64,000 bases of DNA from Anaerolineae bacterium (lineage in GTDB: Bacteria; Chloroflexota; Anaerolineae; B4-G1; DUEL01). Shown here one piece after another: positions 14,120 to 63,279 of this stretch; the stretch's first letter is position 1, and every line of letters starts with the position of its first letter. The translations under genes were made by a program, and so were the position numbers. The stretch spans positions 1,235 to 65,234 of the forward strand of contig JBDOIF010000152.1 of assembly GCA_041082215.1 (NCBI GenBank), in the 5' to 3' direction. The notes below the pieces were generated by a model. That model did no database searches, was not told the origin of the DNA, and saw only the letters and a list, made by a program, of their open reading frames with translations.

Positions 14120-14400
14120 TGGCCGTGCACCCCCCTTCGAACCGCACTGCCCGGCTTGTCGTTGCCGTCCGGCTCCGGGCCGGCACCCCTGCGGCACCCG
14201 GGAGGGACTCTTTACCGTTGCTTCCTTCCGGACCTGGCGGGGTTCGGAGGCTCCCGCCGCGCAGGACCAGCCCCTCAACGCCTTCCGACACCGGCAGTCC
14301 CGTTCAGGCAAGCCCTCGGGGGGGAATTCGACCCCGCTATGGCGGATTGCGGGTACAGGGCACCGCCAGCTCCCCGTCTAGCACGGCCAGAGCTCATCTT
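14120..14400 (-). ncRNA. ffs: Signal recognition particle RNA, long (Bacillus-type) form with Alu domain
   Basis: The minus strand carries the domain-IV motif CAGGTCCGGAAGGAAGCAAC (complement of 14221..14240). The 5' part GGCCGTGCTAGACGGGGAGCTGGCGGTGCCCTGTACCCGCAATCCGCCATAGCGGGGTCGAATTCCC is near-identical in pattern to the B. subtilis scRNA Alu domain, and the 3' GAAGGGGGGTGCACGGCC matches the scRNA 3' end. Ends are approximate. Confidence 0.75.
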
Positions 14401-43365: not shown

Positions 43366-45471
43366 TTACGAAACCGGCTCCACCCGCACCGCGCAGACCT
43401 TGTACTCCGGGATTTTGGCGAGGGGGTCCAGCGCGGCGTGGGTGAGCGCGTTCGCCGCCGCCTCCGCGTAGTGGAAGGGGATGAAGACGACGCCGGGCCG
43501 GATGCGCTTCGTCAGCCGCACCGCAACCTCGATCTCCCCTCGGCGACTCATCACCCGCACCCGCCGAGCGCCGTCCAGGCCGATGCGGGCCGCGTCGTCC
43601 GGATGCATCTCCACATACGGCTCCGGCGCCTCCTGCTCCAGTTTGGGCGACCGGCGGGTCATGGTGCCGGTGTGGAACTGGAACATGGTGCGGCCCGTGG
43701 TCAGGATGAACGGGTACTCCTCATCGGGCAGTTCCGCCGCCTCCTGGAACTCTATCGCGTGGAAGCGGCCCAGGCCTCGGGTGAACTTCTCCTTGTGCAG
43801 GTACGGGGTGCCGGGGTGTTCGGCCGACGGGACGGGCCACTGCAGGGAGCCCTCCCGGTCCAGCCGCTCGTAGGTGACGCCGCCGTAGGAGGGCGCGACG
43901 CGGGCGATTTCAGACATGATTTCGGCGGGGGAGGAGTAGTCCCATTGCGTATTGCGTATTGCGTATTGCGTATCGCGTGCTGCGTGTTGCGTAAGGCGCT
44001 TGGCCAGTTCACAGAGGATTTCCCAGTCGGCCTTGGCCTGGCCCGGCGGGTCCACGGCCTTCCGCACCCGCTGGATGCGCCGGTCGGTGGCGGTGAAGGT
44101 GCCGTCTTTCTCGGCAAACGATGCGCCCGGCAGAACCACGTGCGCCAGTTGTGCCGTCTCCGTCAGGAAGATGTCCTGAACGACCAGGAAGTCCAGTTTC
44201 TCCAGGCACTCCCGCGCGTGGTGGATGTCGGGGTCGGAGAGAAGGGGGTTCTCGCCCATCACGAAGAGGCCCCGCAGGCGCCCCTCCCCTGCCGCGTGGA
44301 CCATCTCCACGACGGTCATGCCAACCTTGTCGGACAACCCCTCCATGCCCCAGGCGGCCTCAAATCTGGCCTTCGCCTCCGGCGAGGTGACGGGCTGGTA
44401 GGCCGGGTAGACGTTGGGGAGGCCGCCCATGTCGCAGGCGCCCTGGACGTTGTTCTGGCCCCGCAGGGGGTTGACCCCGCCGCCAGGGACGCCCAGATTG
44501 CCGGTGAGCATGGCCAGGTTGGCTACGCTCTTGACGTTGTCGGTGCCGGTGGTGTGCTGGGTGATCCCCATTGCATAGAGAATGGCGGCAGGCTTGTTCT
44601 GGGCGTACATCCGCGCCGCGGCGCGCAGGTCCTCCGCTGGGATGCCGGTAATCTCCTCCACCCGCTCCGGCGGGTACTGCTGGACCACCTGCCACATTTC
44701 CTCAAAGCCCTCGGTCCGCTGCCGGATAAACTCCTGGTCGGCCAGTTCCTCGGTGATGATGACGTACATCAGGCCGTTGAGCCAGGCGACATCGGTGCCG
44801 GGGCGGGGGCGCAGGTAGAGGTCGGCCATCCGGCCGATCTGGACCTCGCGCGGGTCGATGACGACAATTTTCGCCCCCCGCTCCTTTGCTTTGAGGACAT
44901 GGCTGGCGATGAGGGGGTGGCCCTCGGTGGTGTTGGAGCCGGTGATCAGGAAGCAGCGGGTGTATTCGCTGAACTCCGGGATGGAGTTAGTCATCGCGCC
45001 ACTGCCGAATGCGGCGGCCAGACCGGCCACCGTGGGGGCGTGTCAGAGACGGGCGCAGTGGTCCACGTTGTTGGTCCTGAAGACGGCGCGGGCCAGTTTC
45101 TGGGCCAGGTAGTTCTCCTCGTTGGTGCACTTGGCGGAGACCAGGAAGCCCAGGGCGTCGGGGCCGTATGTGTCGCGGATGTGGAGCAGCCGATCCGCGA
45201 CCAGGCCCAGCGCCTCGTCCCAGGACGCCTCCCGGAACCCCCCCTGTGTCCCCCCCGCATGCAGGGGGGAGCGGATGAGGGGGGTCGTCAGCCGGTCCGG
45301 GTGGCGGACGAAGGCGGTGGCGTTCCAGCCCTTGATGCAGAGTTTCCCCCCGCTGACGGGGTGCTCCTTCGCCGGCAACACCCCGACGATTTCGCCGTCC
45401 AGCACCTGGATGTAGAGGCCGCATCCGGTGCCGCAGTAGGGGCAGGTAGTGAAGATGTTTCGGTAGTCCAT
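43366..45471 (-). CDS. fdhA: Formate dehydrogenase catalytic subunit (FdhF/FdhA-type), selenocysteine-containing; in-frame TGA at 45043..45045 read as Sec
   Basis: Tracked ORFs 45043..45513 and 43366..45030 are in the same frame and together align with FdhF: CPYCGTGCG...NNVDHCARL-[TGA]-HAPTVAGL (E. coli: CARV-U-HGPSVAGL). Downstream MGITQHTTG, RGQNNVQGACDMG and a C-terminal KVCAVRVEP are molybdopterin-enzyme motifs. N-terminus placed at MDY (45471); the tracked upstream 14 aa are repeat-derived. Confidence 0.85.
43944..43995. repeat. TTGCGTA heptanucleotide tandem array (about 7 units) in frame inside fdhA
   Basis: attgcgtattgcgtattgcgtattgcgtatcgcgtgctgcgtgttgcgtaag, translated as ...[12 protein letters not shown]..., an insertion relative to the E. 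coli FdhF alignment. Confidence 0.7.
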
Positions 45472-45513
45472 AGGGTACTCCGTGTTACGTATTCCGTATT
45501 GCGTGTCCTGCAT

Positions 45514-47772: not shown

Positions 47773-48083
47773 TCAGGTTCCCAGTAGTCCTCGCTGGGCA
47801 GGTAAGCAGTGATGATTGCCAGATAATCCTTCTTCGGCGCACAGACTACGTGCACCGGACGACCCATATGCCCCCAACCCAGCATCAGGCAACTATGCCC
47901 CCGGGCATCCTCCGGATAGTCTTCTATCACTTCGCCGTAGAGAACCACCGCGCGAACTTCATCCGGAGAAATCATCCGGTCAGGAGCATTCATCTGATGT
48001 AAGGCGTGCGGCAGGTAAAGAATCCGCTTCGCAGCAGCTTCTCTAACCTTCTCCAGAATGCTCCTATGGCTCTCGGGTCTCAT
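47751..48083 (-). CDS. DUF4258-family toxin-like protein
   Basis: MRPESHRSILEKVREAAAKRILYLPHALHQMNAPDRMISPDEV...; its ATG (48083..48081) overlaps the TGA of the upstream fdhB-like gene by 1 nt. Confidence 0.6.
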   Translation of the reverse strand: MRPESHRSILEKVREAAAKRILYLPHALHQMNAPDRMISPDEVRAVVLYGEVIEDYPEDARGHSCLMLGWGHMGRPVHVVCAPKKDYLAIITAYLPSEDYWEPDWRTRKR

Positions 48084-48913
48084 CACTCCATACCTACCAT
48101 CGGCCCCTCCGCCAGCGTCAGCGACAGCGGCGGGGCGGCGGCGAGGTCCGCTCCTGGCTCGTACCCCAACAACTCCCCCACATCGCGCCGGATCAGGTCG
48201 TAGAGGACGGTCAGCGGGATGTGGGCCGGGCAGGTCAGTTCGCACTGGCGGCAGCCGACGCAGCGGGCCGCCATGTGCATGGCCCGGATAAGGTGGAAGG
48301 ACGGGAAGGGCGGGGCCAGCACCCCCGGCTCCACCCAGAGCGGGTCCTCCAGCGCGCAGGCCTCGCAGAAGCACTCCGGGCAGATGTTGCGGCAGCCGTA
48401 GCACTTGATGCATTTGGCGAACTGCTCCCGCCAGAAGGCCCAGCGCTCCGCCCAATCCATACTCTCGTACCGGGCGATGATGGGGTTGGGCGAGCCAGCG
48501 AGAGCTGGCGTCCCCAGCGCCACGGCTTGAGGCCAGCCCTCCGTCTTCGGGAAGGGGGCATCGCAGTGGCACGCCTCCGCCTCCTCCGCGGTGCAGGCCA
48601 CCCCCAGGATGTACAGGCGCTCGGGGTCTATCTGATTCCGCTTGGCCATCTCCACCAGCGCGCGCAGATCGCAGGCACGGGCGACAATGCCGAAGCGGGC
48701 CTGCGGGTAGCGCTTCTGGAGCAGGGAGACGACGGACGCCAGAGGGTAGCGAGGGGAGAGAACCAGTTCGGAGAGGTCATCTCCCTGGCGGAAGAGATAC
48801 GGCGCGGTGCCCACAGCCGTCCGCCGCAGGCCGACAACGCCGTCCAGTTCAGGAAGTTTCTCCGCCACGTGGGCGCGCAGGGTGTCCAAAAGGTCGTTAT
48901 CGGTCATCGGCAA
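48083..48913 (-). CDS. FrhB/FdhB-family iron-sulfur protein (putative formate dehydrogenase beta / electron-transfer subunit)
   Basis: An FrhB_FdhB-like core (FGIVARACDLRALVEMAKRNQIDPERLYILGVAC) and two C-terminal Cys clusters (CIKCYGCRNICPECFCEAC; CVGCRQCELTCP). Its last ~25 codons are encoded by repeat copy B. Confidence 0.5.
   Translation of the reverse strand: MPMTDNDLLDTLRAHVAEKLPELDGVVGLRRTAVGTAPYLFRQGDDLSELVLSPRYPLASVVSLLQKRYPQARFGIVARACDLRALVEMAKRNQIDPERLYILGVACTAEEAEACHCDAPFPKTEGWPQAVALGTPALAGSPNPIIARYESMDWAERWAFWREQFAKCIKCYGCRNICPECFCEACALEDPLWVEPGVLAPPFPSFHLIRAMHMAARCVGCRQCELTCPAHIPLTVLYDLIRRDVGELLGYEPGADLAAAPPLSLTLAEGPMVGME
48104..48176. repeat. 73-bp direct repeat, copy B, forming the 3' end of the fdhB-like gene
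   Basis: See copy A; together they bracket the YgiT/DUF4258 cassette. Confidence 0.8.
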
Positions 48914-50855: not shown

Positions 50856-51275
50856 CTACAGGCCCAGTTCCTGCTCGATCGGCCCCAGGGCGCGGATGGT
50901 CTCCACGAACTCGGCGGTCACCTGGGCAAACTTGGGGGCCTCCGCCGAGGAGACCCAGTCCAGTCGCAGCCGCTGGGGGTTGATGCCCACGTAGGAAAGC
51001 AGGTTACGCAGCAGGGGCATCCGTTTGGCGGTGCGGTGATTACCGTTGATGTAATGGCAGTCGCCGATGTGGCAGCCCAGCACCAGCACCCCGTCGGCGC
51101 CAGCGCGAAAGGCCCGCAGCACCATTTCCGGCGACACCCGCCCGGAGCACATCACCCGGATGGGCAGGACGTTGGGCGGCGACTTCATCCGCGCGATGCC
51201 CGCGTTATCGGCTCCGGCGTAGGAGCACCAGTTGCACAGAAAAGCGACAATGCGAGGTTGAAAAACTTCGCTCAT
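50856..51275 (-). CDS. mvhD: MvhD/FlxD-type hydrogenase iron-sulfur subunit (HdrA-associated)
   Basis: IVAFLCNWCSYAGAD...VMCSGRVSPEMVLRAF..GADGVLVLGCHIGDCHY. Confidence 0.85.
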   Translation of the reverse strand: MSEVFQPRIVAFLCNWCSYAGADNAGIARMKSPPNVLPIRVMCSGRVSPEMVLRAFRAGADGVLVLGCHIGDCHYINGNHRTAKRMPLLRNLLSYVGINPQRLRLDWVSSAEAPKFAQVTAEFVETIRALGPIEQELGL

Positions 51276-51877: not shown

Positions 51878-53833
51878 CTACACCCAGACGCCCGCTAAGA
51901 GGCCCTCTATCTGCGCCACAATCTGCTCGTCGGTAAAGTGAAGGCCGGTGATGGCATGGGATGGGCAGGTGGCGACGCAGGTGCCACATCCCTGACACAG
52001 CGCCGGGTTTACCTGCGCTTTCCCTTCCACGCGGGAGATCGCGGAGTAAGGGCAGGCCAGGATGCACTCACCGCACCCCACGCAGGCCTCCCGATCCACC
52101 ACGGCGACGGTGGGCGATATGGTGACCTCGCCCTGGTTGAACAACCGCACCACCTCCAGCGCCGCCGCCCCGGCATGGGCCACCGTGTCGGGGATGTCCC
52201 GTGGCCCCTGGGCACAGCCGGCCAGGAAGACCCCCGCCGTGGCCGTCTCCACCGGCCGCAGTTTGGGGTGCGCTTCGGCAAACCAGCCGTCGGGTGTGCG
52301 GCCCAGGCCGAACAACGGGGCGATGCGGTCCACATCGGGCTGCGGCTCGATGGCCGACTCCAGGATCACCAGGTCCACGTCCACAAACACCAGCCGTCCC
52401 AGGTTGGCATCCTCTCCCTTCACGCGGAGTTTGCCATCCGGCATGACTTCCACCTCGGCTCCCTTGCCCCGGACGAAGACGACTCCCTCCTCCTGCACCC
52501 GCTCGTAGAACTCCTCATAGGCCTTGCCGAAGGCCCGCATATCCATATAGAAATCGTACACCTCGGCTCCGGTCTTATCCCGCACCTGGTGGGCGTGCTT
52601 GAGGGCGTACATGCAACAGATGCGGGAGCAGTAAGGGTGAGCGTTCTCGTCGCGGCTGCCGACGCAATGGATGATGGCCACCCGCTGGGGCTTCTTCCCC
52701 TCGGCGGTGACGATCTCCCCCCCGGTGGGGCCGGTGGCGCTGGTGAGCCGCTCAAACTGTAGCCCGGTGATGATATTGGGCGAGAGGCCGTAGGAATACT
52801 GCGGAAGTTTCGCGGGGTCCCACATCGCAAACCCGGTCGCCACGATGATGGCGCCGACCTGAACTTCGAGCAGTTGATCCTCCTGGGTGTAATCAATCGC
52901 CCCGGTGGGGCAGAACTTCTCGCAGACCTTACACTTGCCCTGGGTAAAGAACCGGCAGTTCTCCCGGTCAATCACCGGGATGTTCGGGATGGCCTGGGCG
53001 AAGGGGCGGTAGATGGCCTTCCGCTTCCCCATCCCCGCCTCGAAGGCTGTATCCACCACTTTGGTGGGGCACTTCTCCTGGCAGAGGCCACAGCCGGTGC
53101 ACTTCTCCTCATCCACCGACCGCGCCCGTTTGCGGATGCGGGCGGTGAAATGGCCCACATAGCCGGAGACCTCTTCAACTTCACTGTAGGTCAGGAGGGT
53201 GATGTTGGGATGCCGACCGGCATCCATCATCTTGGGGCCCAGGATTCAGGTACTACAGTCCAGCGTGGGGAAAGTCTTATCCAACTGGGCCATATGGCCG
53301 CCGATGGATGGCTCCCGTTCCACCAGATAGACCGGGTAGCCCGCGTCAGCGATGGAGAGGGCGGCCTGGATGCCGGCGATGCCGCCGCCCACCACCAGCG
53401 CCGCTTTTGTCACCGGCTCCCGCCGGGGCTCCAGCGGGGCCTGGTATGCCACCCGGAAAACCGCCGACCGCACCAGCCGCTTCGCCTTCTCCGTGGCTGC
53501 CTCTTTATCATCGGTGATCCAGGAGACATGCTCGCGGATGTTGGCCATCTGGAAGAAATAGGGGTTGAGCCCGGCGGCCCCCAGGGCTCGCTGGAAGGTC
53601 GTCTCGTGCATCCGGGGGGTGCAGGACGCCACCACGACCCGGTTCAGGCCCAGGTTGCGGATGTCCTCCTGGATCATCAACTGGCCCGGCTCGGAGCACA
53701 TGTACTTGTACACCCGGGCGACGGCGACGCCAGGCAGTTTAGAAGCCATCTCTGCGACCGCCTCCACATCCACCGTGGCCGAGATATTGATGCCGCATTC
53801 ACAGATGTAGACGCCGATTCGGGGTTGCTCCAT
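51878..53833 (-). CDS. hdrA: Heterodisulfide reductase subunit A, selenocysteine-containing paralog 1; in-frame TGA at 53246..53248
   Basis: Tracked ORFs 53246..53971 and 51878..53230 are in one frame: ...GGGIAGIQAAL...KTFPTLDCST-[TGA]-ILGPKMMDAGRHPNITLLTYSEV..., which aligns with the HdrA consensus KTFPTLDCS-x-C-ILxPKMVEVxRHPNI with TGA at the Cys position. Also an FAD Rossmann motif, four or more ferredoxin Cys clusters, and an N-terminal YICECG. Start set at MEQPRIGVY. Confidence 0.85.
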
Positions 53834-53865
53834 AGCGAGCGCTCCTTCCATTTCGGTCTCAGACA

Positions 53866-55065
53866 TCAGGACTCTGCAGCCTGAATAGACTGCCAGAGCA
53901 GTTCCATTACATCCATTGCCCGCACGCGGATGCGGTTCTGCCGCGCTCCTTCCTGGAGGGTGCGCTTGCACTGCTGGCAGGCGGACGCCAGGATGCTGGC
54001 TCCTGTCGCCTGGATCTGGGCCAGCCGTTTTGCCGCGACGCCCATTGTGACAGCAGGGTCAGCCATCTCTACATCTCCGCCGCCGCCACAGCACAGCGCG
54101 CTCTGGCGAGACATAGACATCTCTCTCAATTCCAGCCCCGGAATGCGGGTCAGTATTTCCCGGGGTGGATCATATACGCCGCTCTTGCGCCCCAGGTCAC
54201 AGGGGTCGTGATAGGTCACCACGCCTTCCACTGGTCCCAATGGCGGGGCGGATTGTGCCATTCGTTCTGCCAGGAACTCGGTAGCATGCTGGAAATGGAG
54301 CCCTCGCACATCCGCCATCTCCGGATACAGGTGGGACCAGGCGTAGTAACAGGACGGACAGGTGAAGACCACCCTTTCCGCGCCCACCCTGCGCACCTGT
54401 TCCAGGTTGTGTCGGGCGATTTCCGCCATCTGATCCCGCAGTCCCGCGACATAGAGCGGGTATCCGCAACACCACTCGTCTCCGCCCAGGGTGGTAAACT
54501 CCACCTCTGCCCGCTCCAGCACTTTGACCGTTGCCTGAGGGATGGAGTACGCGCGCGGGTAGAACGACCCCACGCATCCCACAAAATAAACGACCTCCGC
54601 CGTTCGCCGCAGGGGTTGCACGCCCACCGGTGGGTCGGGCATATTCTGGCTCCATACCAGACGGTTGGCGTTCTCGTCGCCGGAGATGTTGTACTGGCTG
54701 GTGACGGTCTGGCTGACTCGCAGCAGCAGTTGGGGGACTTCCAGGCCCTGGCGCTGGACGTACTCCCGAAGGGCCACCATCGTATCCGTGATCTGGATGC
54801 CCCGGGGGCAACGGACCTGGCAGGACTTACAAACCGTGCAGAGCCAGAAGGTGCGGCTGGTCAATACCTCCGCCGTTAGTCCCAGCTGCACCATTCGCCA
54901 CAACTGACGCGGGGTATAATCCATCGCGTAGGAGGTGGGACAGGAAGCGGAGCATGTGCCGCACTGGATGCAGGAGAGAATCTTTTCCCAGCGGCCGGGG
55001 GTCACCTGCTGAGCAAACGTCCGGTCCGCCTGGGCGAGGTCCAGGATTTCAGGGGGGTTGGTCAT
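53866..55065 (-). CDS. HdrC-HdrB fusion protein (HdrD/GlpC-like; 2x[4Fe-4S] + two CCG domains)
   Basis: N-terminal CIQCGTCSASCP...CTVCKSCQVRCP; C-terminal CCG motifs (DEWCCGYP..., LCCGGGG). Confidence 0.8.
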   Translation of the reverse strand: MTNPPEILDLAQADRTFAQQVTPGRWEKILSCIQCGTCSASCPTSYAMDYTPRQLWRMVQLGLTAEVLTSRTFWLCTVCKSCQVRCPRGIQITDTMVALREYVQRQGLEVPQLLLRVSQTVTSQYNISGDENANRLVWSQNMPDPPVGVQPLRRTAEVVYFVGCVGSFYPRAYSIPQATVKVLERAEVEFTTLGGDEWCCGYPLYVAGLRDQMAEIARHNLEQVRRVGAERVVFTCPSCYYAWSHLYPEMADVRGLHFQHATEFLAERMAQSAPPLGPVEGVVTYHDPCDLGRKSGVYDPPREILTRIPGLELREMSMSRQSALCCGGGGDVEMADPAVTMGVAAKRLAQIQATGASILASACQQCKRTLQEGARQNRIRVRAMDVMELLWQSIQAAES

Positions 55066-55256: not shown

Positions 55257-56522
55257 TTATCCGCCCGCCTGGGGCAAAAAGCGGCGAACGGTGTGCAGAA
55301 GATGGTCCGGGTCTATCGGTTTGCTGATCCAGGCGTCTATCGGGATGTGCAGGGTATCGGGCAGAAGGCCAGCGTACTGGCTGCTATCAATGCTGGAGAC
55401 CATCACCACCGGGATAGGCCGCAGGGCCGGGTCCGCCGCGATTTCCTGGGCGACACCCGCGCCTTCCAGCGGCGTCGCCATCATCACGTCCAGCATGACC
55501 AGGTCCGGCTTCTCCTCCCGCATCATCTTCAACGCCTGCTGCCCGTTGCTGGCGGTCGCGACCTGATACCCCGCTTTGCTGAGAATCCGCCGGGAGAGGT
55601 CCACGAAGTCCGGGTCATCGTCCACCACCAGAATCCTCAGCGCCACTCCTGGCTTGACCTCCACCTTCTTCTTCGGTCGCAGATAGATGAACCAGTAGGC
55701 CAGGCCGACAAAGCCTGCGCCGCCGATGATGTTCCCGATGGTCACCGGCAGCAGATTTCTCAGGAAGAAGCCCCCCCAGGTAAGCGCGGCGAAGTCGGCG
55801 GGCGTCTTGCCGATGGCTTCCCAGAAAGCCGCTGGTGCCCATGACTTGATGAAAAGGCCGATCGGGATGAGGTACATATTGGCGATACTGTGCTCAAACC
55901 CGGCGGCGACAAAGGCAGTAATGGGGAAGATGATGGAGAGGATTTTATCCGTTGTGGACCGGGCCGACGCGCAGAGCCACACCGCCAGGCAGACCAGCGC
56001 ATTACACATAATGCCCAGCGCGGTGGCCTGAAGGAATCCCAGGCTGCATTTCGCGTTGGCGATAGAGAGTGCGTTCAATCCCAGCGCGCCCGAGGCAAAG
56101 GTGTACTGGCTGGTAAGAAACATCACCAGCGCGGTGAAGATAGAACCGATGAAGTTGCCCGCGTAGACAATGGCCCAGTTGCGCAGGAGTTGGACAGTGG
56201 TGACCCGGCGGCTGGCGTAGGCCATCACAATGAGATTGTTGCCGGTGAACAGTTCTGCCCCAGCGACCACGACCGCGATCAGGCCGAGGCAGAAGACCAG
56301 GCCGCCTGCCAGCCGGATCAGTCCATACGGCACACCAGCCGCGCTCAAGCCGGTCGTCACGGTGGTCAGGAAGATACCACCCGTTCCGATAAACGCGCCG
56401 GCCAGAACGGCAAGAGCGAACATCGTCCAGAAATCCAGGTTCGCTTTGGTGACCCCCACCTCTTCCATACGGCTGGCCATTTTCGCCGGTGGGAAGGCAT
56501 CAATTTGCAATTCACTGCTCAT
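55257..56522 (-). CDS. Formate/nitrite transporter (FocA/FNT) fused to a C-terminal response-regulator receiver domain
   Basis: An FNT core (FLTTVTTGLSAAG...LFTGNN...AAGFEHSIANMY) followed by RILVVDDDPDFVDLSRRILSKAGYQVATASNGQQALKMMREEKPDLVMLDVMM..., i.e. a CheY-like REC with the phospho-acceptor Asp context. Confidence 0.75.
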   Translation of the reverse strand: MSSELQIDAFPPAKMASRMEEVGVTKANLDFWTMFALAVLAGAFIGTGGIFLTTVTTGLSAAGVPYGLIRLAGGLVFCLGLIAVVVAGAELFTGNNLIVMAYASRRVTTVQLLRNWAIVYAGNFIGSIFTALVMFLTSQYTFASGALGLNALSIANAKCSLGFLQATALGIMCNALVCLAVWLCASARSTTDKILSIIFPITAFVAAGFEHSIANMYLIPIGLFIKSWAPAAFWEAIGKTPADFAALTWGGFFLRNLLPVTIGNIIGGAGFVGLAYWFIYLRPKKKVEVKPGVALRILVVDDDPDFVDLSRRILSKAGYQVATASNGQQALKMMREEKPDLVMLDVMMATPLEGAGVAQEIAADPALRPIPVVMVSSIDSSQYAGLLPDTLHIPIDAWISKPIDPDHLLHTVRRFLPQAGG

Positions 56523-58087: not shown

Positions 58088-59128
58088 TTACAGCGCCACC
58101 ACCCGGGCGAAGTCCGCCGGGGTCACGCCGGGGGTCTCGATATGGTACTCGGCATAGAAGCGGGAGATGATCGGCTCCACTTCCTCCAGCCTTGCCCCTA
58201 TCAGTGCGCTTTCCAGATCTGTCAGCCGCTCCGCTGGATAGAAGAAGAAGTCGCCAGAGAGGGAGACACTCTCGATCACTCCTTCTCGCACCTCGGCCGT
58301 GGCGCGGATGAGGCCGCCGGGGGCTTTGTAGGCCCGCTGAACCACCTGGACGCCGGAGCGGATGGTGACGGCACGGCCTTCCTGGGGCCGGCCGTGGCGG
58401 AACAGCCACTCGTCGGTGAGCATCCTCTGCGCCAGCCGGTCCGCCTCCGCCCGCCATTCGGCATCCACCTCCGTCACCACCTCCATCGGCCCCAGCACAT
58501 CGGCGAACCTCTCCGCCAGCAGGTCCCACAGTTCCTCGCGCGGCGGCGCTGTGCCCAGCTCCCTCCGGATAGTGGAGAGATTATCCTGCAGGGTCTTGTA
58601 GACTTTATCGCGGAACTTCTCGTCGGGCACCCGCAGCACCCGTACCATCGTCTCGTAGTCAAAATCCACAATCAGGTTGCCGACGAAGACGATGTAGTCG
58701 CCGATCTCGGCCACGCCGTTGCCGGAAATCTTGCGGCCGTTGGCGATGATGTCGTTGACCGGCTTGTACTCGGCGGGGATGCCCAGAGCCCGGTAGGCGG
58801 CGATGGGGGCCTGGAGAAACTTCTGGTAGAACGCTGCCTTGTCCTTCGGGACCAGCGGGTTATCCTTGTGGATGATTAACTGGTAGAAGAGTTGTTCGCC
58901 ATCCAGATAGACGGCGCCCCCTCCCACCTCTCGCCGGAAGACCGGAATGCCGCGCTCCCGGCAGTAGTCCAGGTCCACCTCCTGCGCGGCGTCCTGGAAG
59001 TAGCCGATGCAGACGTAGGGGGATGCAGGGGAAAGCAGATTCAGCCCCTCCCGCCCGATGCGAGGAAGGGCATGGTAGAGAATTTGGGAGTCCTGCCAGG
59101 GTACGGTCTCGAGGCGGTAGAGTTTCAT
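58088..59128 (-). CDS. lplA: Lipoate-protein ligase A-like (LplA/LipB/BirA catalytic fold + LplA C-terminal domain)
   Basis: MKLYRLETVPWQDSQILYHAL...RREVGGGAVYLDGEQL...K(I)SGNG lysine motif; AGGAGG RBS before the ATG at 59128. The tracked N-terminal 11 aa are rejected. Confidence 0.7.
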   Translation of the reverse strand: MKLYRLETVPWQDSQILYHALPRIGREGLNLLSPASPYVCIGYFQDAAQEVDLDYCRERGIPVFRREVGGGAVYLDGEQLFYQLIIHKDNPLVPKDKAAFYQKFLQAPIAAYRALGIPAEYKPVNDIIANGRKISGNGVAEIGDYIVFVGNLIVDFDYETMVRVLRVPDEKFRDKVYKTLQDNLSTIRRELGTAPPREELWDLLAERFADVLGPMEVVTEVDAEWRAEADRLAQRMLTDEWLFRHGRPQEGRAVTIRSGVQVVQRAYKAPGGLIRATAEVREGVIESVSLSGDFFFYPAERLTDLESALIGARLEEVEPIISRFYAEYHIETPGVTPADFARVVAL

Positions 59129-59149
59129 GAATTCCTCCTGTTTTTGGGT

Positions 59150-59238
59150 GTCGGGCGTCAAACGTCAGGCGTCAAACGTCAAACGTCAAACGTCAGGCGT
59201 CAAACGTCAAACGTCAAACGTCAAACGTCAGGCATCAA
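59150..59238. repeat. Tandem array of about 13 GTCAAAC / GTCAGGC heptamers
   Basis: gtcgggcgtcaaacgtcaggcgtcaaacgtcaaacgtcaaacgtcaggc...gtcaggcatcaacc, between mvhD2 and lplA. Confidence 0.85.
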
Positions 59239-59665: not shown

Positions 59666-59715
59666 CTACGGAATACGCAGTACGTACTACGTATTGCGTG
59701 TCGCGTATTGCGCCC
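59666..59715. repeat. TACGGAA/TATTGCG-family repeat overlapping the hdrA2 3' end
   Basis: ctacggaatacgcagtacgtactacgtattgcgtgtcgcgtattgcgc; it encodes the last residues (AMRAQYATRNT) of the tracked HdrA2 ORF. Confidence 0.6.
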
Positions 59716-61678
59716 GCATCGCGAAGATCGCCCCCATCATCTCCGAAACCAGTTGCCGGTCGGTGAAGTGACGGAGGGTGATCGCTTTGGAAGGGCAGGC
59801 TCCGGCGCAGGTGCCGCACCCCTTGCAGAGCGCATCGATCACATGGGCGACCCTGCGCTCTTTCAGGTATTCGATGGCCGCGTACGGACAGGACTGGATA
59901 CACTGCCCGCAGCCGGTGCACATCAGCTCGTCCACGAGGGCGGTGGCCGACTCTACCTTCACCTCTCCCTGGCCGATGAGGGAAAGGACCCGCGCCGCCG
60001 CCGCCGAGCCCTGGGCCACCGAGTCCGGGATGTCCTTCGGCCCCTGAGCGCACCCGGCGACGAGCACCCCGTCGGTCATCGTCGCCACCGGGTCCAGCTT
60101 GGGGTGCTTTTCCCTGAACCACCCGTCGGCGTCGGTGCTGATGCCGAAGAGACGGGCCACTTCCCGGCTGTCGTGGCGCGGTTCCAGGCCGATCGCCAGC
60201 ACCACCATATCCACCGGCAGCCGTCGCTGCCGCCCCACCAGGGAATCGTCGAACTGGACGACCAGTTTTCCCTCCTCCTCCGGCCCGCGTGCAGCGTCCG
60301 TCACCTGGGCCACCTTCCCGCGGATGAAGTGGATCCCCTCATCCAGCATCCGGTGGTAGAACTCCTCATATAGCTTGCCGGGGGCGCGAATGTCAATATA
60401 GAAGTTATATACCTCGGCGTGGGTCTTATGGCGGATCAGGTGGGCCAGCTTCAGGGAGTACATACAGCAGACCCGGGAGCAGTATTCGTGGTACTTCTTG
60501 TCCCGGCTGCCCACGCAGTGGATGATGGCCACCTGTCGGGGGACCGTTTCCCCATCCCGCAGGACCACCTTGCCGCCGGTAGGACCAGCCCCGCTGAGCA
60601 TCCGCTCCATCTCCAGGCTGGTGAAGACGTTGGGGAAACGGCCGTAGCCGTACTGGGGAATCCGTCGGGCGTCGAAGGGATCGAAGCCGGTGGCGAGGAT
60701 GATGTTGCCCACCTGGACCTCCAGGATGGTGTCCTGCTGGTTGTAGTCTATGGCGCCGGTGGGGCAGACCTTTTCACAGAGGCGGCAACGGCCTTTGGTA
60801 AACCAGAGGCAGTTGTCGCGGTCAATGACGGGGACGGGGGGCACTGCCTGGGCGAAGGGGCGGTAGACCGCCTTCCGATACCCCAGCCCCGCCTCGTAGG
60901 CGGCGTCAACGACTTTCGTGGGGCACTTTTCCTCACACGTACCGCATCCGGTGCACTTCTCTGCATCCACCGACCGGGCCCGAACGCGGATGCGGACCAC
61001 AAAGTTGCCCACATAGCCGGAGACGCTTTCCACCTCGCTGTAGGTCAGGAGATTGATGTTGGGATGCCGACCGGCATCCATCATTTTGGGCCCGAGAATT
61101 CAGGCACTACAGTCGAGCGTGGGGAAGGTCTCATCCAGTTGAGCCATCCGGCCGCCGATGGAAGGCTCCCGTTCCACCAGATAGACCGGGTAGCCGGCGT
61201 TGGCCAGCTCCAGGGCCGCCTGGATGCCGGTGATCCCCCCGCCGACGACCAGCGTGGCCGGGTTGATGCGCACCCGGTTTTCCTCCAGGGGCTGGTGGTG
61301 GCGCACCCTTAGGACCGCCGCCTCGACCAGGGCTTTTGCCTTCCCGGTGGCGATCTCGGGGTCATCGTGGACCCAGGAACACTGTTCGCGGATGTTGGCC
61401 ATCTCGAAGAAGTAGGGGTTGAGACCTGCCTCTGCCACAGCTCGCTGGAAGGTCGGCTCGTGCATCCGCGGGGTGCAGGAAGCCACCACCACCCGGTCCA
61501 GTCCCAGCTCCTGAATGTCCTTTTTGATCAGCTCCTGGCCCAGGCTGGAACACATGAAGCGGTAGTCGCGGGCCACGGCCACCCCCGGCAGGTCGGCGGC
61601 CCAGCGGGCCACCTCCGCCACGTCTACCACACCGGCGATGTTGGAACCACAGTGGCAGATGTAGACGCCGATCTTCAT
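59687..61678 (-). CDS. hdrA: Heterodisulfide reductase subunit A, selenocysteine-containing paralog 2; in-frame TGA at 61100..61102
   Basis: Tracked ORFs 61100..61708 and 59687..61084 share a frame: ...ETFPTLDCSA-[TGA]-ILGPKMMDAGRHPNINLLTYSEV...; the same architecture as paralog 1 (about 75% identity by eye). Start set at MKIGVY. Confidence 0.85.
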
Positions 61679-61753: not shown

Positions 61754-62740
61754 TCAGCGACGGAGCGAAGCGGAGTCGCGCTGTACGGCCGCCAGCGGTT
61801 CGGGCATCGGCAGGCCGGTCCGCTCCCGGCGCGGTTTGCGTTCCGCTGTCTCCTCTTCGGGTGGCGGGTTGCGGAACTTCTCCAGCACCCGTTCCGCCGA
61901 CACGATCTCCTGCCCAAAGCCCAGTTTCTCCGGCTCCAATCCGAAGGCCAGGCCCATCATCTGGGTGAAGTAGAGGACCGGGATGTGGAAATCGGTGCCG
62001 AAGTGGGAGTTGACCTGTCCCTGGTAGGCGTCCAGGTTGAGCTGGCACATCGGGCAGGCAGTGACGAGGGCGTCCACCTCCAGCTTGGCCGCGTTGTAGA
62101 GCAGGTAGTGGATCATCCTGTAGGCGGTCTCGGCGTCCAACTGGGTCATATGGCCGCCGCAGCAGTTGGCCCGCAGGGTGTAATCCACCACCTCCGCCCC
62201 CAGCGTCTCCAGCAGCCGCTCCATCCGCGAGGGGTATTCGAAGTTGTCGCGCCCCTCTGGGCGGACAGTGACACAGCCGTAGTAGGCGGCCAGCCGCAGC
62301 CCCCGCAGCGGCGCCTTCACGTGGGCTCCGATCTCCTCCAGGCTGAAATCCTCCACAACCACCTCCAGCGCGTGGCGGGAGTGGACCCGGCCCGGATCAT
62401 AGTGGAGCTTCCCCGCCGCCAGCGCCTCGTTCACCGCCGCTGCCAGCTTGGGATGGGCAAGCATATTCTTGTCGGTCTTCAGCATATTGTAGTAACAGGC
62501 GGAGCAGGGGGCCACCACCTCCTTCAGGTCGGGGGGCACCAGCGCCAGGTTGCGGGCCACCAGCGCGTAAGCGGGGAGCAGGTCGAGGGAAAAGTACTCC
62601 GTTGCCCCGCAGCAGTTCCAATCGGGGATCTCCACCAGCTCGATCCCCAGAACCTCTGCCACGGCGCGGAAAGACTCGTCGTAGGCCGCAGCGTTCCGTT
62701 CCAGCGAACAACCGGGGTAGTAGGCGTACCGTCTCACCAT
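61754..62740 (-). CDS. hdrB: Heterodisulfide reductase subunit B-like, paralog 3
   Basis: MVRRYAYYPGC...NCCGATE and GCV...NCCGGH CCG motifs; start set at the ATG 62740 (GGGAGGTG RBS), and the long tracked upstream extension is rejected. Confidence 0.8.
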   Translation of the reverse strand: MVRRYAYYPGCSLERNAAAYDESFRAVAEVLGIELVEIPDWNCCGATEYFSLDLLPAYALVARNLALVPPDLKEVVAPCSACYYNMLKTDKNMLAHPKLAAAVNEALAAGKLHYDPGRVHSRHALEVVVEDFSLEEIGAHVKAPLRGLRLAAYYGCVTVRPEGRDNFEYPSRMERLLETLGAEVVDYTLRANCCGGHMTQLDAETAYRMIHYLLYNAAKLEVDALVTACPMCQLNLDAYQGQVNSHFGTDFHIPVLYFTQMMGLAFGLEPEKLGFGQEIVSAERVLEKFRNPPPEEETAERKPRRERTGLPMPEPLAAVQRDSASLRR

Positions 62741-63279
62741 GCACCTCCCAGTTCTTTGGCCCTGCGGAGGATAGCGCGCAGTTGGCGGATGCCCTGGATC
62801 CGTTTGGGCGTGAAGGACATCCGGCCCCGGGTCACCATGCCCAGCATCAGGGGGGACATGCGGATGCTCTGGAGGGGATGGTGGCGAAGGTAGTGCCCGG
62901 TCGCCAGACCCAGTTCGAAACTGCGCCCGTAAGTCTCCACCTGCCCCACGAAGGTCTCGGAGAAGCCGGTGATGGAAGCAGTGTAGTAGCCAGCCTGGAT
63001 GGCCAGCCGCTTGAGCTGGTACATAATGTCTGTGATCGGGATCTCCTGGGGGCAGCGGATGGTGCAGTAGTAGCAGGAGACGCAGAACCAGAAGGTGTTG
63101 CTTTTGAGGACCTCCTCCCGCATTCCGGCCAGGATCATTGCGAAGATCTCCCGCGGCGTGTAGTCCATAGCCGGGCCGGAAGGGCACGACCCGCCACAGG
63201 AACCGCACTGAATACAGGCCCTCAGCCGCTCCCCGCCGGGGATCGCCATCACCTCTTCTAGGAAGCTCTTTTCTGCCAT
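62734..63279 (-). CDS. hdrC: Heterodisulfide reductase subunit C-like, paralog 3
   Basis: CIQCGSCGGSCP...CVSCYYCTIRCP; start set at MAEKSF (could be MARRRD at 63324). Confidence 0.75.
   Translation of the reverse strand: MAEKSFLEEVMAIPGGERLRACIQCGSCGGSCPSGPAMDYTPREIFAMILAGMREEVLKSNTFWFCVSCYYCTIRCPQEIPITDIMYQLKRLAIQAGYYTASITGFSETFVGQVETYGRSFELGLATGHYLRHHPLQSIRMSPLMLGMVTRGRMSFTPKRIQGIRQLRAILRRAKELGGAW

Follow-up and report, generated by a model that had tools for sequence, protein, structure and literature searches.

The stretch of DNA analysed here, 64,000 nucleotides (nt) of contig JBDOIF010000152.1 from an Anaerolineae bacterium (hereafter the window), carries on its minus strand a gene for an HdrA-family flavoprotein (hdrA paralog 1, or hdrA1; 51878..53833) whose reading frame is crossed by an in-frame TGA at 53248-53246. 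Two open reading frames (ORFs), 53246..53971 and 51878..53230, lie in one common frame and are joined by this TGA. Read through the UGA from the ATG at 53833 (MEQPRIGVYICECG), which is also the start found in relatives, the gene would encode a protein of 651 amino acids (aa) with selenocysteine (Sec) at residue 196. The minus-strand sequence from 53271 to 53201 is TTC CCC ACG CTG GAC TGT AGT ACC TGA ATC CTG GGC CCC AAG ATG ATG GAT GCC GGT CGG CAT CCC AAC ATC, preceded by AAG ACT, and the translation reads KTFPTLDCST up to the TGA and ILGPKMMDAGRHPNI beyond it. The putative Sec replaces the second Cys of the FPTLDCSxC motif and gives a CxxU motif (C193-S-T-U196). Both halves of the gene have a high GC content at third codon positions (GC3, 0.75-0.85), and their domains are intact.

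These domains comprise an N-terminal Fe-S domain, a thioredoxin-reductase-like domain that binds flavin adenine dinucleotide (FAD), an inserted ferredoxin domain and a C-terminal ferredoxin domain. Residues 1-646 align with residues 9-653 of the solved HdrA 8rvu_a of a hydrogenotrophic methanogen (E 2.7e-231), and 5odc_A, likewise a solved Cys form from a methanogen, is also matched end to end (E 2e-218). Kept in hdrA1 are the N-terminal CxC with two further Cys, the FAD-binding GGGIAG, the CSRICCMY motif, and four copies of CxxCxxCxxxCP, two in the inserted and two in the C-terminal ferredoxin domain. In these alignments the residue opposite the UGA is the second Cys of LDCSMCILAPKM, which is Cys197 in native numbering (residue 205 in 8rvu_a, whose sequence begins 8 residues early, and 194 in 8rvv_A, which begins at residue 4). 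This Cys is invariant in 112 full-length homologs, and the aligned residue is Sec197 in Methanococcus maripaludis (PMC13518236). The first-pass annotation, which had placed an in-frame TGA at the conserved Cys of FPTLDCSxC between two ORFs of the same frame, and had pointed to Sec at the same site in HdrA of the Methanococcales, is borne out on each of these points. The best NCBIfam match of hdrA1 is the HdrA model NF040770, at 832 bits against a cutoff of 1100, and NF041778 is matched at 623 bits against 1400; since these equivalog cutoffs for the coenzyme B-coenzyme M (CoB-CoM) HdrA of methanogens are not reached, we regard hdrA1 as encoding an HdrA-family flavoprotein and not a proven CoB-CoM reductase.

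Just past the TGA the transcript can fold into a candidate bacterial selenocysteine insertion sequence (SECIS) hairpin (53201..53231, minus strand), consisting of two stems, the lower one short, and a GGUC loop. In the upper stem GGAUGCC (53225-53219) is paired with GGCAUCC (53214-53208) over 7 base pairs (bp), the apical GGUC loop occupies 53218-53215, and GAUG (53231-53228) could pair with CAUC (53204-53201) as a lower stem. A 7-bp stem with a GGUC loop some 20 nt downstream of the TGA had been described in the first pass as a plausible bacterial SECIS, and both description and interpretation hold up: the hairpin begins exactly 20 nt and its loop 27 nt 3' of the UGA, and the core has an energy of -13.1 kcal/mol. 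The published bacterial SECIS (bSECIS) model specifies a loop of 3-9 nt, an upper stem of 4-16 bp, a loop that opens with GG or GU, a UGA-to-loop distance of 16-37 nt and a minimum free energy of -7.5 kcal/mol or lower (PMC13188914). With a loop of 4 nt, a stem of 7 bp, GGUC, 27 nt and -13.1 kcal/mol, the hdrA1 hairpin lies within the model in every respect.

The arrangement is shared by the nearest relatives of the gene. In a search of a 5.8-billion-protein collection, full-length homologs (~650 aa) of up to 80% identity had Cys at the site (FPTLDCS[LI]CILGPKM, DCAACILTPKM), and the closer matches, at 86-90% identity, were fragments of 449-454 aa that all start MMDAGRHP, as does the window's downstream ORF; on their contigs, the TGA and hairpin are identical to those of the window. 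Scanning one genome per GTDB species yielded 79 loci with protein identities of 61 to 89%; their labels are Anaerolineae, Thermoflexales, Thermoflexia or Chloroflexota in nearly all cases, and 'delta proteobacterium' or Syntrophaceae in a few. A TGA was present at 88 of the 88 related sites located, 86 of them by motif search and 2 by eye, in about 80 independent assemblies. The codons at +8 to +12 from the UGA (GAT GCC GGT CGG CAT), from which the entire loop and most of the stem are built, do not vary among 83 distinct sequences except for one CAC, and the codons flanking the hairpin show 20-55% synonymous variation. When 77 distinct full-length genes were aligned by codon, 264 columns were conserved at the amino-acid level and had degenerate codons, with a mean codon variability of 0.32; only five of them reach 0.02 or below, and these are D-A-G-R-H, the hairpin codons. 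This invariance at synonymous sites is the strongest evidence that the UGA is genuine and read through, and it points to selection acting on the nucleotides themselves across the 77 genes.

The same alignments bear on whether hdrA1 is in reality a split gene, in which the ribosome would terminate at the UGA and initiate again at the ATG-ATG six codons further on, producing an N-terminal, FAD-binding fragment of 195 aa and a C-terminal one of 450 aa. Gene callers have cut every relative in just this manner (195 aa plus 450-454 aa), and the ATG ATG does lie 15 nt past the TGA. However, the five codons that separate the TGA from the next ATG, I-L-G-P-K (+1 to +5; 53231..53245, minus strand), would be translated only upon readthrough, and among the 83 distinct sequences they show 20-46% synonymous variation with a single amino-acid change, L to I. 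Such protein-level purifying selection indicates that they are translated and argues against two polypeptides. The break would also cut the FAD-domain segment LDCSxCILxPKM, which is contiguous in all solved HdrA structures, and would do so exactly at the Cys known as Sec in other HdrAs; by eye there is no Shine-Dalgarno-like purine run ahead of the ATG, and a restart would leave the nucleotide invariance of the hairpin unexplained. We consider a split gene very unlikely.

Two further genes in the window appear to contain Sec. The first is a second hdrA paralog (hdrA2; 59687..61678, minus strand, ~663 aa, UGA at 61102-61100), which is 62% identical to paralog 1 and has Pfam matches in both halves. 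Its motif is DETFPTLDCSA-U-ILGPKMMDAGRH, and its hairpin is identical in sequence to that of hdrA1 (fold z = -1.85). Related genomes contain two corresponding paralog clades, LDKT...ST in 55 loci and LDET...SA in 22, with both in 3. The second gene is fdhA, for the alpha subunit of formate dehydrogenase (43366..45513, minus strand), whose UGA at 45045-45043 falls at the classical FdhA Sec site, VDHCARL-U-HAPTVAGL. Its two halves match TIGR01591 (Fdh-alpha) over positions 1-128 and 135-672, the C-terminal part alone scoring 675 bits against a cutoff of 666, and its TGA is conserved in 26 related loci. In the predicted fdhA SECIS, CGGUGGCC pairs with GGCCGCCG around a GGUCU loop, the stem beginning 10 nt after the UGA, so that a GGUC-type loop is common to all three Sec sites of the window. 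Stems of fdhA in related loci were observed to carry G-C to G-U changes, and in one locus (L031) a G-C pair has become A-U by a double change, which hints at compensatory evolution. When the window was scanned systematically for further in-frame TGA junctions, the other candidates proved to be gene boundaries or off-frame artefacts, leaving these three sites as the only credible ones. MvhD/FlpD and HdrB/GlpC-like proteins, which are selenoprotein families elsewhere, gave uninterrupted profile matches and are thus Cys forms here.

Among relatives, the state of hdrA always agrees with that of the neighbouring fdhA: TGA was paired with TGA in 26 of 26 cases and TGC with TGC in 3 of 3, which is the pattern expected for the gain or loss of a dedicated Sec-decoding trait. 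In Cys-form relatives the loop, which does not vary among the Sec forms, is altered to GGCC (L085) or to AGCC with a stem codon of CAC (L087), and the peptide after the Cys varies (MVEAGRH, MVTVSRD, MVSVGQH) and is no longer MMDAGRH. Both loci (L085, 9965-13741; L087, 9947-13233) hold a Cys-HdrA and a Cys-FdhA (TGC) in one operon, with a degraded hairpin left over. These hairpins are relics of SECIS elements, such as have been reported where Sec was converted to Cys.

Readthrough of the UGA could in principle insert something other than Sec, through a suppressor tRNA, through near-cognate decoding as Trp or Cys, or through a reassigned code (genetic codes 4 and 25), and this would accord with the fact that no Sec machinery was seen in the window. 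Against it, TGA is the commonest ordinary stop in the window, where it ends 27 of 51 family-supported ORFs, so that the code is not reassigned genome-wide; the three credible in-frame TGAs all stand at known Sec positions of two selenoprotein families, each with its GGUC-type hairpin; and the coupling of Sec and Cys states between hdrA and fdhA across genomes runs counter to it as well. Non-Sec readthrough therefore strikes us as highly improbable. Alternatively, the TGA could be an error of sequencing or assembly, or a TGC or TGT Cys codon recently mutated to a stop in a pseudogene. This would need only one base change and can point to Cys-form homologs at 74-80% identity, but is almost certainly wrong, given a TGA at all 88 related sites from independent assemblies and again in the second paralog of the window, high GC3 and intact domains in both halves, and a downstream hairpin that is selectively maintained.

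We put at about 0.93 the probability that the UGA at 53248-53246 is decoded as Sec, that the product is a single 651-aa HdrA with Sec196, and that the hairpin is a bacterial SECIS, an assessment made from sequence comparison. Several observations weigh against it. Among ~60 ORFs of the 64-kb window scanned with Pfam and NCBIfam there was no selA, selB or selD, ARAGORN found no tRNA and hence no tRNA-Sec there, and no tRNA-Sec was found in 60 related loci; the Sec machinery of the genome is thus only inferred, the canonical Sec-FdhA in the window being indirect support for Sec decoding. The hdrA1 hairpin segment (66-67 nt, in a sequence of 64.5% GC) folds with z = -0.8 to -0.9 against dinucleotide shuffles, and because significance is weak over all the sites folded (z -0.8 to -1.85), we did not use folding energy as evidence. 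Rfam returned no SECIS family at E <= 10 between 52900 and 53500, where there were chance matches only, and none at gathering score in the whole window, although, bacterial SECIS elements being short and diverse, such a negative carries little weight. As the hdrA1 hairpin is invariant, it offers no compensatory base changes, and covariation gives no information. Finally, KMMDAGRH was one of six peptide patterns by which the relatives were recruited, so Sec forms are over-represented in the sample behind the 88 sites as far as amino acids are concerned; each pattern can be encoded by many DNA sequences, however, and synonymous sites are left unbiased.

If the UGA is decoded as Sec, the hairpin GGAUGCC-GGUC-GGCAUCC, 20 nt downstream, would act as a SECIS during translation of hdrA and, by analogy with Escherichia coli fdhF, would recruit SelB-GTP-Sec-tRNA(Sec) to the ribosome paused at the UGA, so that full-length 651-aa HdrA would be made with Sec196 inserted. 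As to what the residue might do, Cys197 of Methanothermobacter wolfeii HdrA, in the thioredoxin-reductase-like domain of one protomer, ligates the N-terminal [4Fe-4S] cluster of its partner (PMC9012536). In M. maripaludis, where the same residue is Sec197, cryo-electron microscopy density suggests a Cys-Sec bridge between the N-terminal cluster and the bifurcating FAD, and the authors of that 2026 structural paper leave the exact role of Sec197 open (PMC13518236). This role of Cys197/Sec197 at the N-terminal cluster and FAD would place Sec196 where electrons travel between flavin and ferredoxin, in the direction of ferredoxin.

The genes around hdrA1 are those of an Hdr-formate dehydrogenase system. 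The order on the minus strand is fused hdrCB, hdrA1, a gene of the 23S-rRNA-intervening-sequence (IVP) family, mvhD, two MNT/HEPN pairs, an fdhB-like gene, a DUF4258 ORF, a GmrSD gene, fdhA and mobA. The fused hdrC-hdrB gene (53866..55065), directly upstream of hdrA1, encodes a 4Fe-4S dicluster domain and two CCG domains (Pfam, NCBIfam). The mvhD/flpD gene for the [2Fe-2S] electron-entry subunit (50856..51275) matches PF02662 over positions 1-123 of 123 (E 8.8e-54) and is an uninterrupted Cys form. The fdhB-like gene for the Fe-S subunit of an Hdr-associated formate dehydrogenase (48083..48913) has no Pfam family assigned, and its product is 76% identical to that of the gene between mvhD and fdhA in one relative (L005). 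These neighbours recur among relatives, 78 of the loci fetched for this comparison having MvhD and 60 having HdrCB, and the series hdrC/B-hdrA-mvhD-fdhB-fdhA, contiguous in relatives, is interrupted in the window. The interrupting genes are that of the 23S-rRNA-intervening-sequence family (51874-51302), the two nucleotidyltransferase/HEPN (MNT/HepT-type) toxin-antitoxin pairs (50538-48930), the DUF4258 ORF and the GmrSD-type restriction endonuclease gene (47193-45514), all on the minus strand; the interval 51874-45514 amounts to a small defence and toxin-antitoxin island within an energy-metabolism operon.

Further genes on the minus strand surround hdrA2. An mvhD at 59656-59228 comes after it, and directly upstream of it (61754-63208) lies a gene for a 484-aa protein in which residues 160-444 are HdrB-like, with two CCG domains, and the first ~160 aa form an extension that matches no family. 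A separate 284-aa HdrB and a 126-aa HdrC-like ORF are found at 58005-56780. Between the two hdr clusters, 55257-56522 encodes a formate/nitrite transporter (FocA/NirC family) with a response-regulator receiver domain fused at its C-terminus, homologs of which occur in 23 related loci. Amid the hdr genes is also a gene for a lipoate-protein ligase (LplA-type; 58088-59161). In 10 related loci, L001, L004 and L005 among them, the flanks fetched around Sec-hdrA, of up to 10 kb, include an LplA homolog, and L005 has a GcvH-like gene as well. The position of LplA next to hdr recalls the lipoate-binding-protein link of the sulfur-oxidising sHdr system; the HdrA here is the full-length bifurcating type. 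Elsewhere in the window, the sole Rfam match at gathering score was a bacterial large signal recognition particle RNA (RF01854, 172 bits; 14123-14386, minus strand).

Given an hdrCB-hdrA-mvhD-fdhB-fdhA cluster with a Sec-FdhA, and judging from homology and gene order, hdrA1 most likely encodes the flavin subunit of an Hdr-Fdh complex that would oxidise formate and carry out flavin-based electron bifurcation in an anaerobic bacterium of the Chloroflexota (Anaerolineae/Thermoflexales). Electrons would pass from FdhAB through MvhD to the FAD of HdrA and there be split between HdrBC and ferredoxin. Sec196 would sit on the latter branch, at the N-terminal cluster; its redox role, like the substrates of the complex, is one that we infer. 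Although speculative, one could go beyond an ordinary Sec-HdrA and propose that the hairpin marks a laterally spreading Sec-HdrA cassette or an unusually stringent, family-specific SelB-SECIS pairing, or, as a separate proposal, that the substrate of HdrBC is a lipoylated carrier protein reduced with formate-derived electrons. The first is suggested by an 18-nt hairpin that stays near-identical across 61-89% protein identity, two paralog clades and metagenome-assembled genomes (MAGs) labelled Chloroflexota, 'delta proteobacterium' and Syntrophaceae; the second by the recurrence of a lipoate-protein ligase gene beside a bifurcating-type hdr and by the GcvH-like gene of one relative. We find these proposals improbable.

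The first-pass annotation had further remarked that Sec-HdrA appears rare in bacteria, and this does not stand, as the family is among the most populous of bacterial selenoproteins. In a 2006 survey HdrA was already the fourth largest bacterial selenoprotein family, with 16 proteins, and its hosts included Syntrophobacter fumaroxidans (7 copies), Syntrophus aciditrophicus (4 copies), Moorella, Carboxydothermus, Desulfotomaculum and Syntrophomonas (Zhang et al., PMC1794560); a 2016 survey counted 103 Sec-HdrA in 42 organisms (Peng et al., PMC5029168), and a 2026 review lists HdrA with its CxxU motif (PMC13188914). Sec-HdrA is thus a long-known and fairly common bacterial family, and the residue, motif, type of SECIS, multi-copy habit and neighbourhood found here are all as expected. 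What is modestly new is the host clade, Anaerolineae/Thermoflexales, for which our literature search turned up only Sec-FdhA; the striking invariance of the hairpin over two paralog clades and differently labelled MAGs; and the systematic mis-splitting of Sec-hdrA genes in public assemblies. In the window and in every related public assembly examined, gene callers split both Sec-hdrA (into ORFs of 195 and 450 aa) and Sec-fdhA. Metabolic reconstructions from MAGs of these lineages will consequently miscount or miss bifurcating enzymes and underestimate selenium dependence in the Chloroflexota. The pairs of HdrA and FdhA that switch together between Sec and Cys form a clean natural set for studying why Sec is kept at position 197. 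Overall, a lineage is added to a well-catalogued selenoprotein family, and no concept is changed.

The paradigm for a bacterial SECIS is that of E. coli fdhF, in which GGUC stands in the apical loop, its G and U being contacts of SelB. Like it, the hdrA1 hairpin lies immediately 3' of the UGA within the ORF. The fdhA hairpin of the window, with its GGUCU loop and a stem 10 nt after the UGA, has what we take to be an arrangement close to that of E. coli fdhF, whereas in hdrA1 the stem begins 20 nt and the loop 27 nt after the UGA, the 7-bp stem is perfect and lacks the bulged U of fdhF, and there is no Rfam match.

With the HdrA of methanogens, both the VhuD-associated Sec197 form of M. maripaludis and M. 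jannaschii and the Cys form of Methanothermobacter (5ODC, 8RVU), hdrA1 shares homology over its full length, the same four-domain layout and the same Fe-S Cys motifs. The likeness does not extend to the signal for Sec, since archaeal Sec insertion generally relies on a SECIS of other shape in the 3' untranslated region (PMC13188914), while hdrA1 has an in-frame hairpin of bacterial kind. Unlike in methanogens, there is no known coenzyme M-coenzyme B heterodisulfide (CoM-S-S-CoB) in the bacterium of the window.

The closest match to hdrA1 as a selenoprotein is the bacterial Sec-HdrA family of Syntrophobacter fumaroxidans, Syntrophus aciditrophicus, Moorella thermoacetica, Carboxydothermus hydrogenoformans, Desulfotomaculum reducens and Syntrophomonas wolfei. 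The family and the CxxU position of Sec are the same, the SECIS likewise lies inside the coding region just past the UGA, and, as in the window, there are often several copies per genome beside mvhD/frhD and hdrBC/glpC-like genes. On the other hand, the catalogued members belong to Deltaproteobacteria and Clostridia and the host of hdrA1 to Chloroflexota (Anaerolineae/Thermoflexales); in contrast to these members, the MvhD and HdrB/C-like proteins of the window are Cys forms, and the partner is a formate dehydrogenase and not a [NiFe(Se)] hydrogenase. As a gene cluster, the nearest parallel is the HdrBCA-MvhD-FdhBA cluster with Sec-formate dehydrogenase described, in the relevant part of one report, for the marine Chloroflexi DscP3/Dsc4 and for Desulfobacula toluolica Tol2 (PMC5736913). 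The gene set given there equals that of the window, including a fused hdrBC, mvhD, an Fe-S FdhB and Sec-FdhA, although the cluster in the window, unlike that one, is interrupted by toxin-antitoxin and restriction genes. In that part of the report Sec is given for FdhA only, whereas in the window HdrA appears to contain Sec as well.

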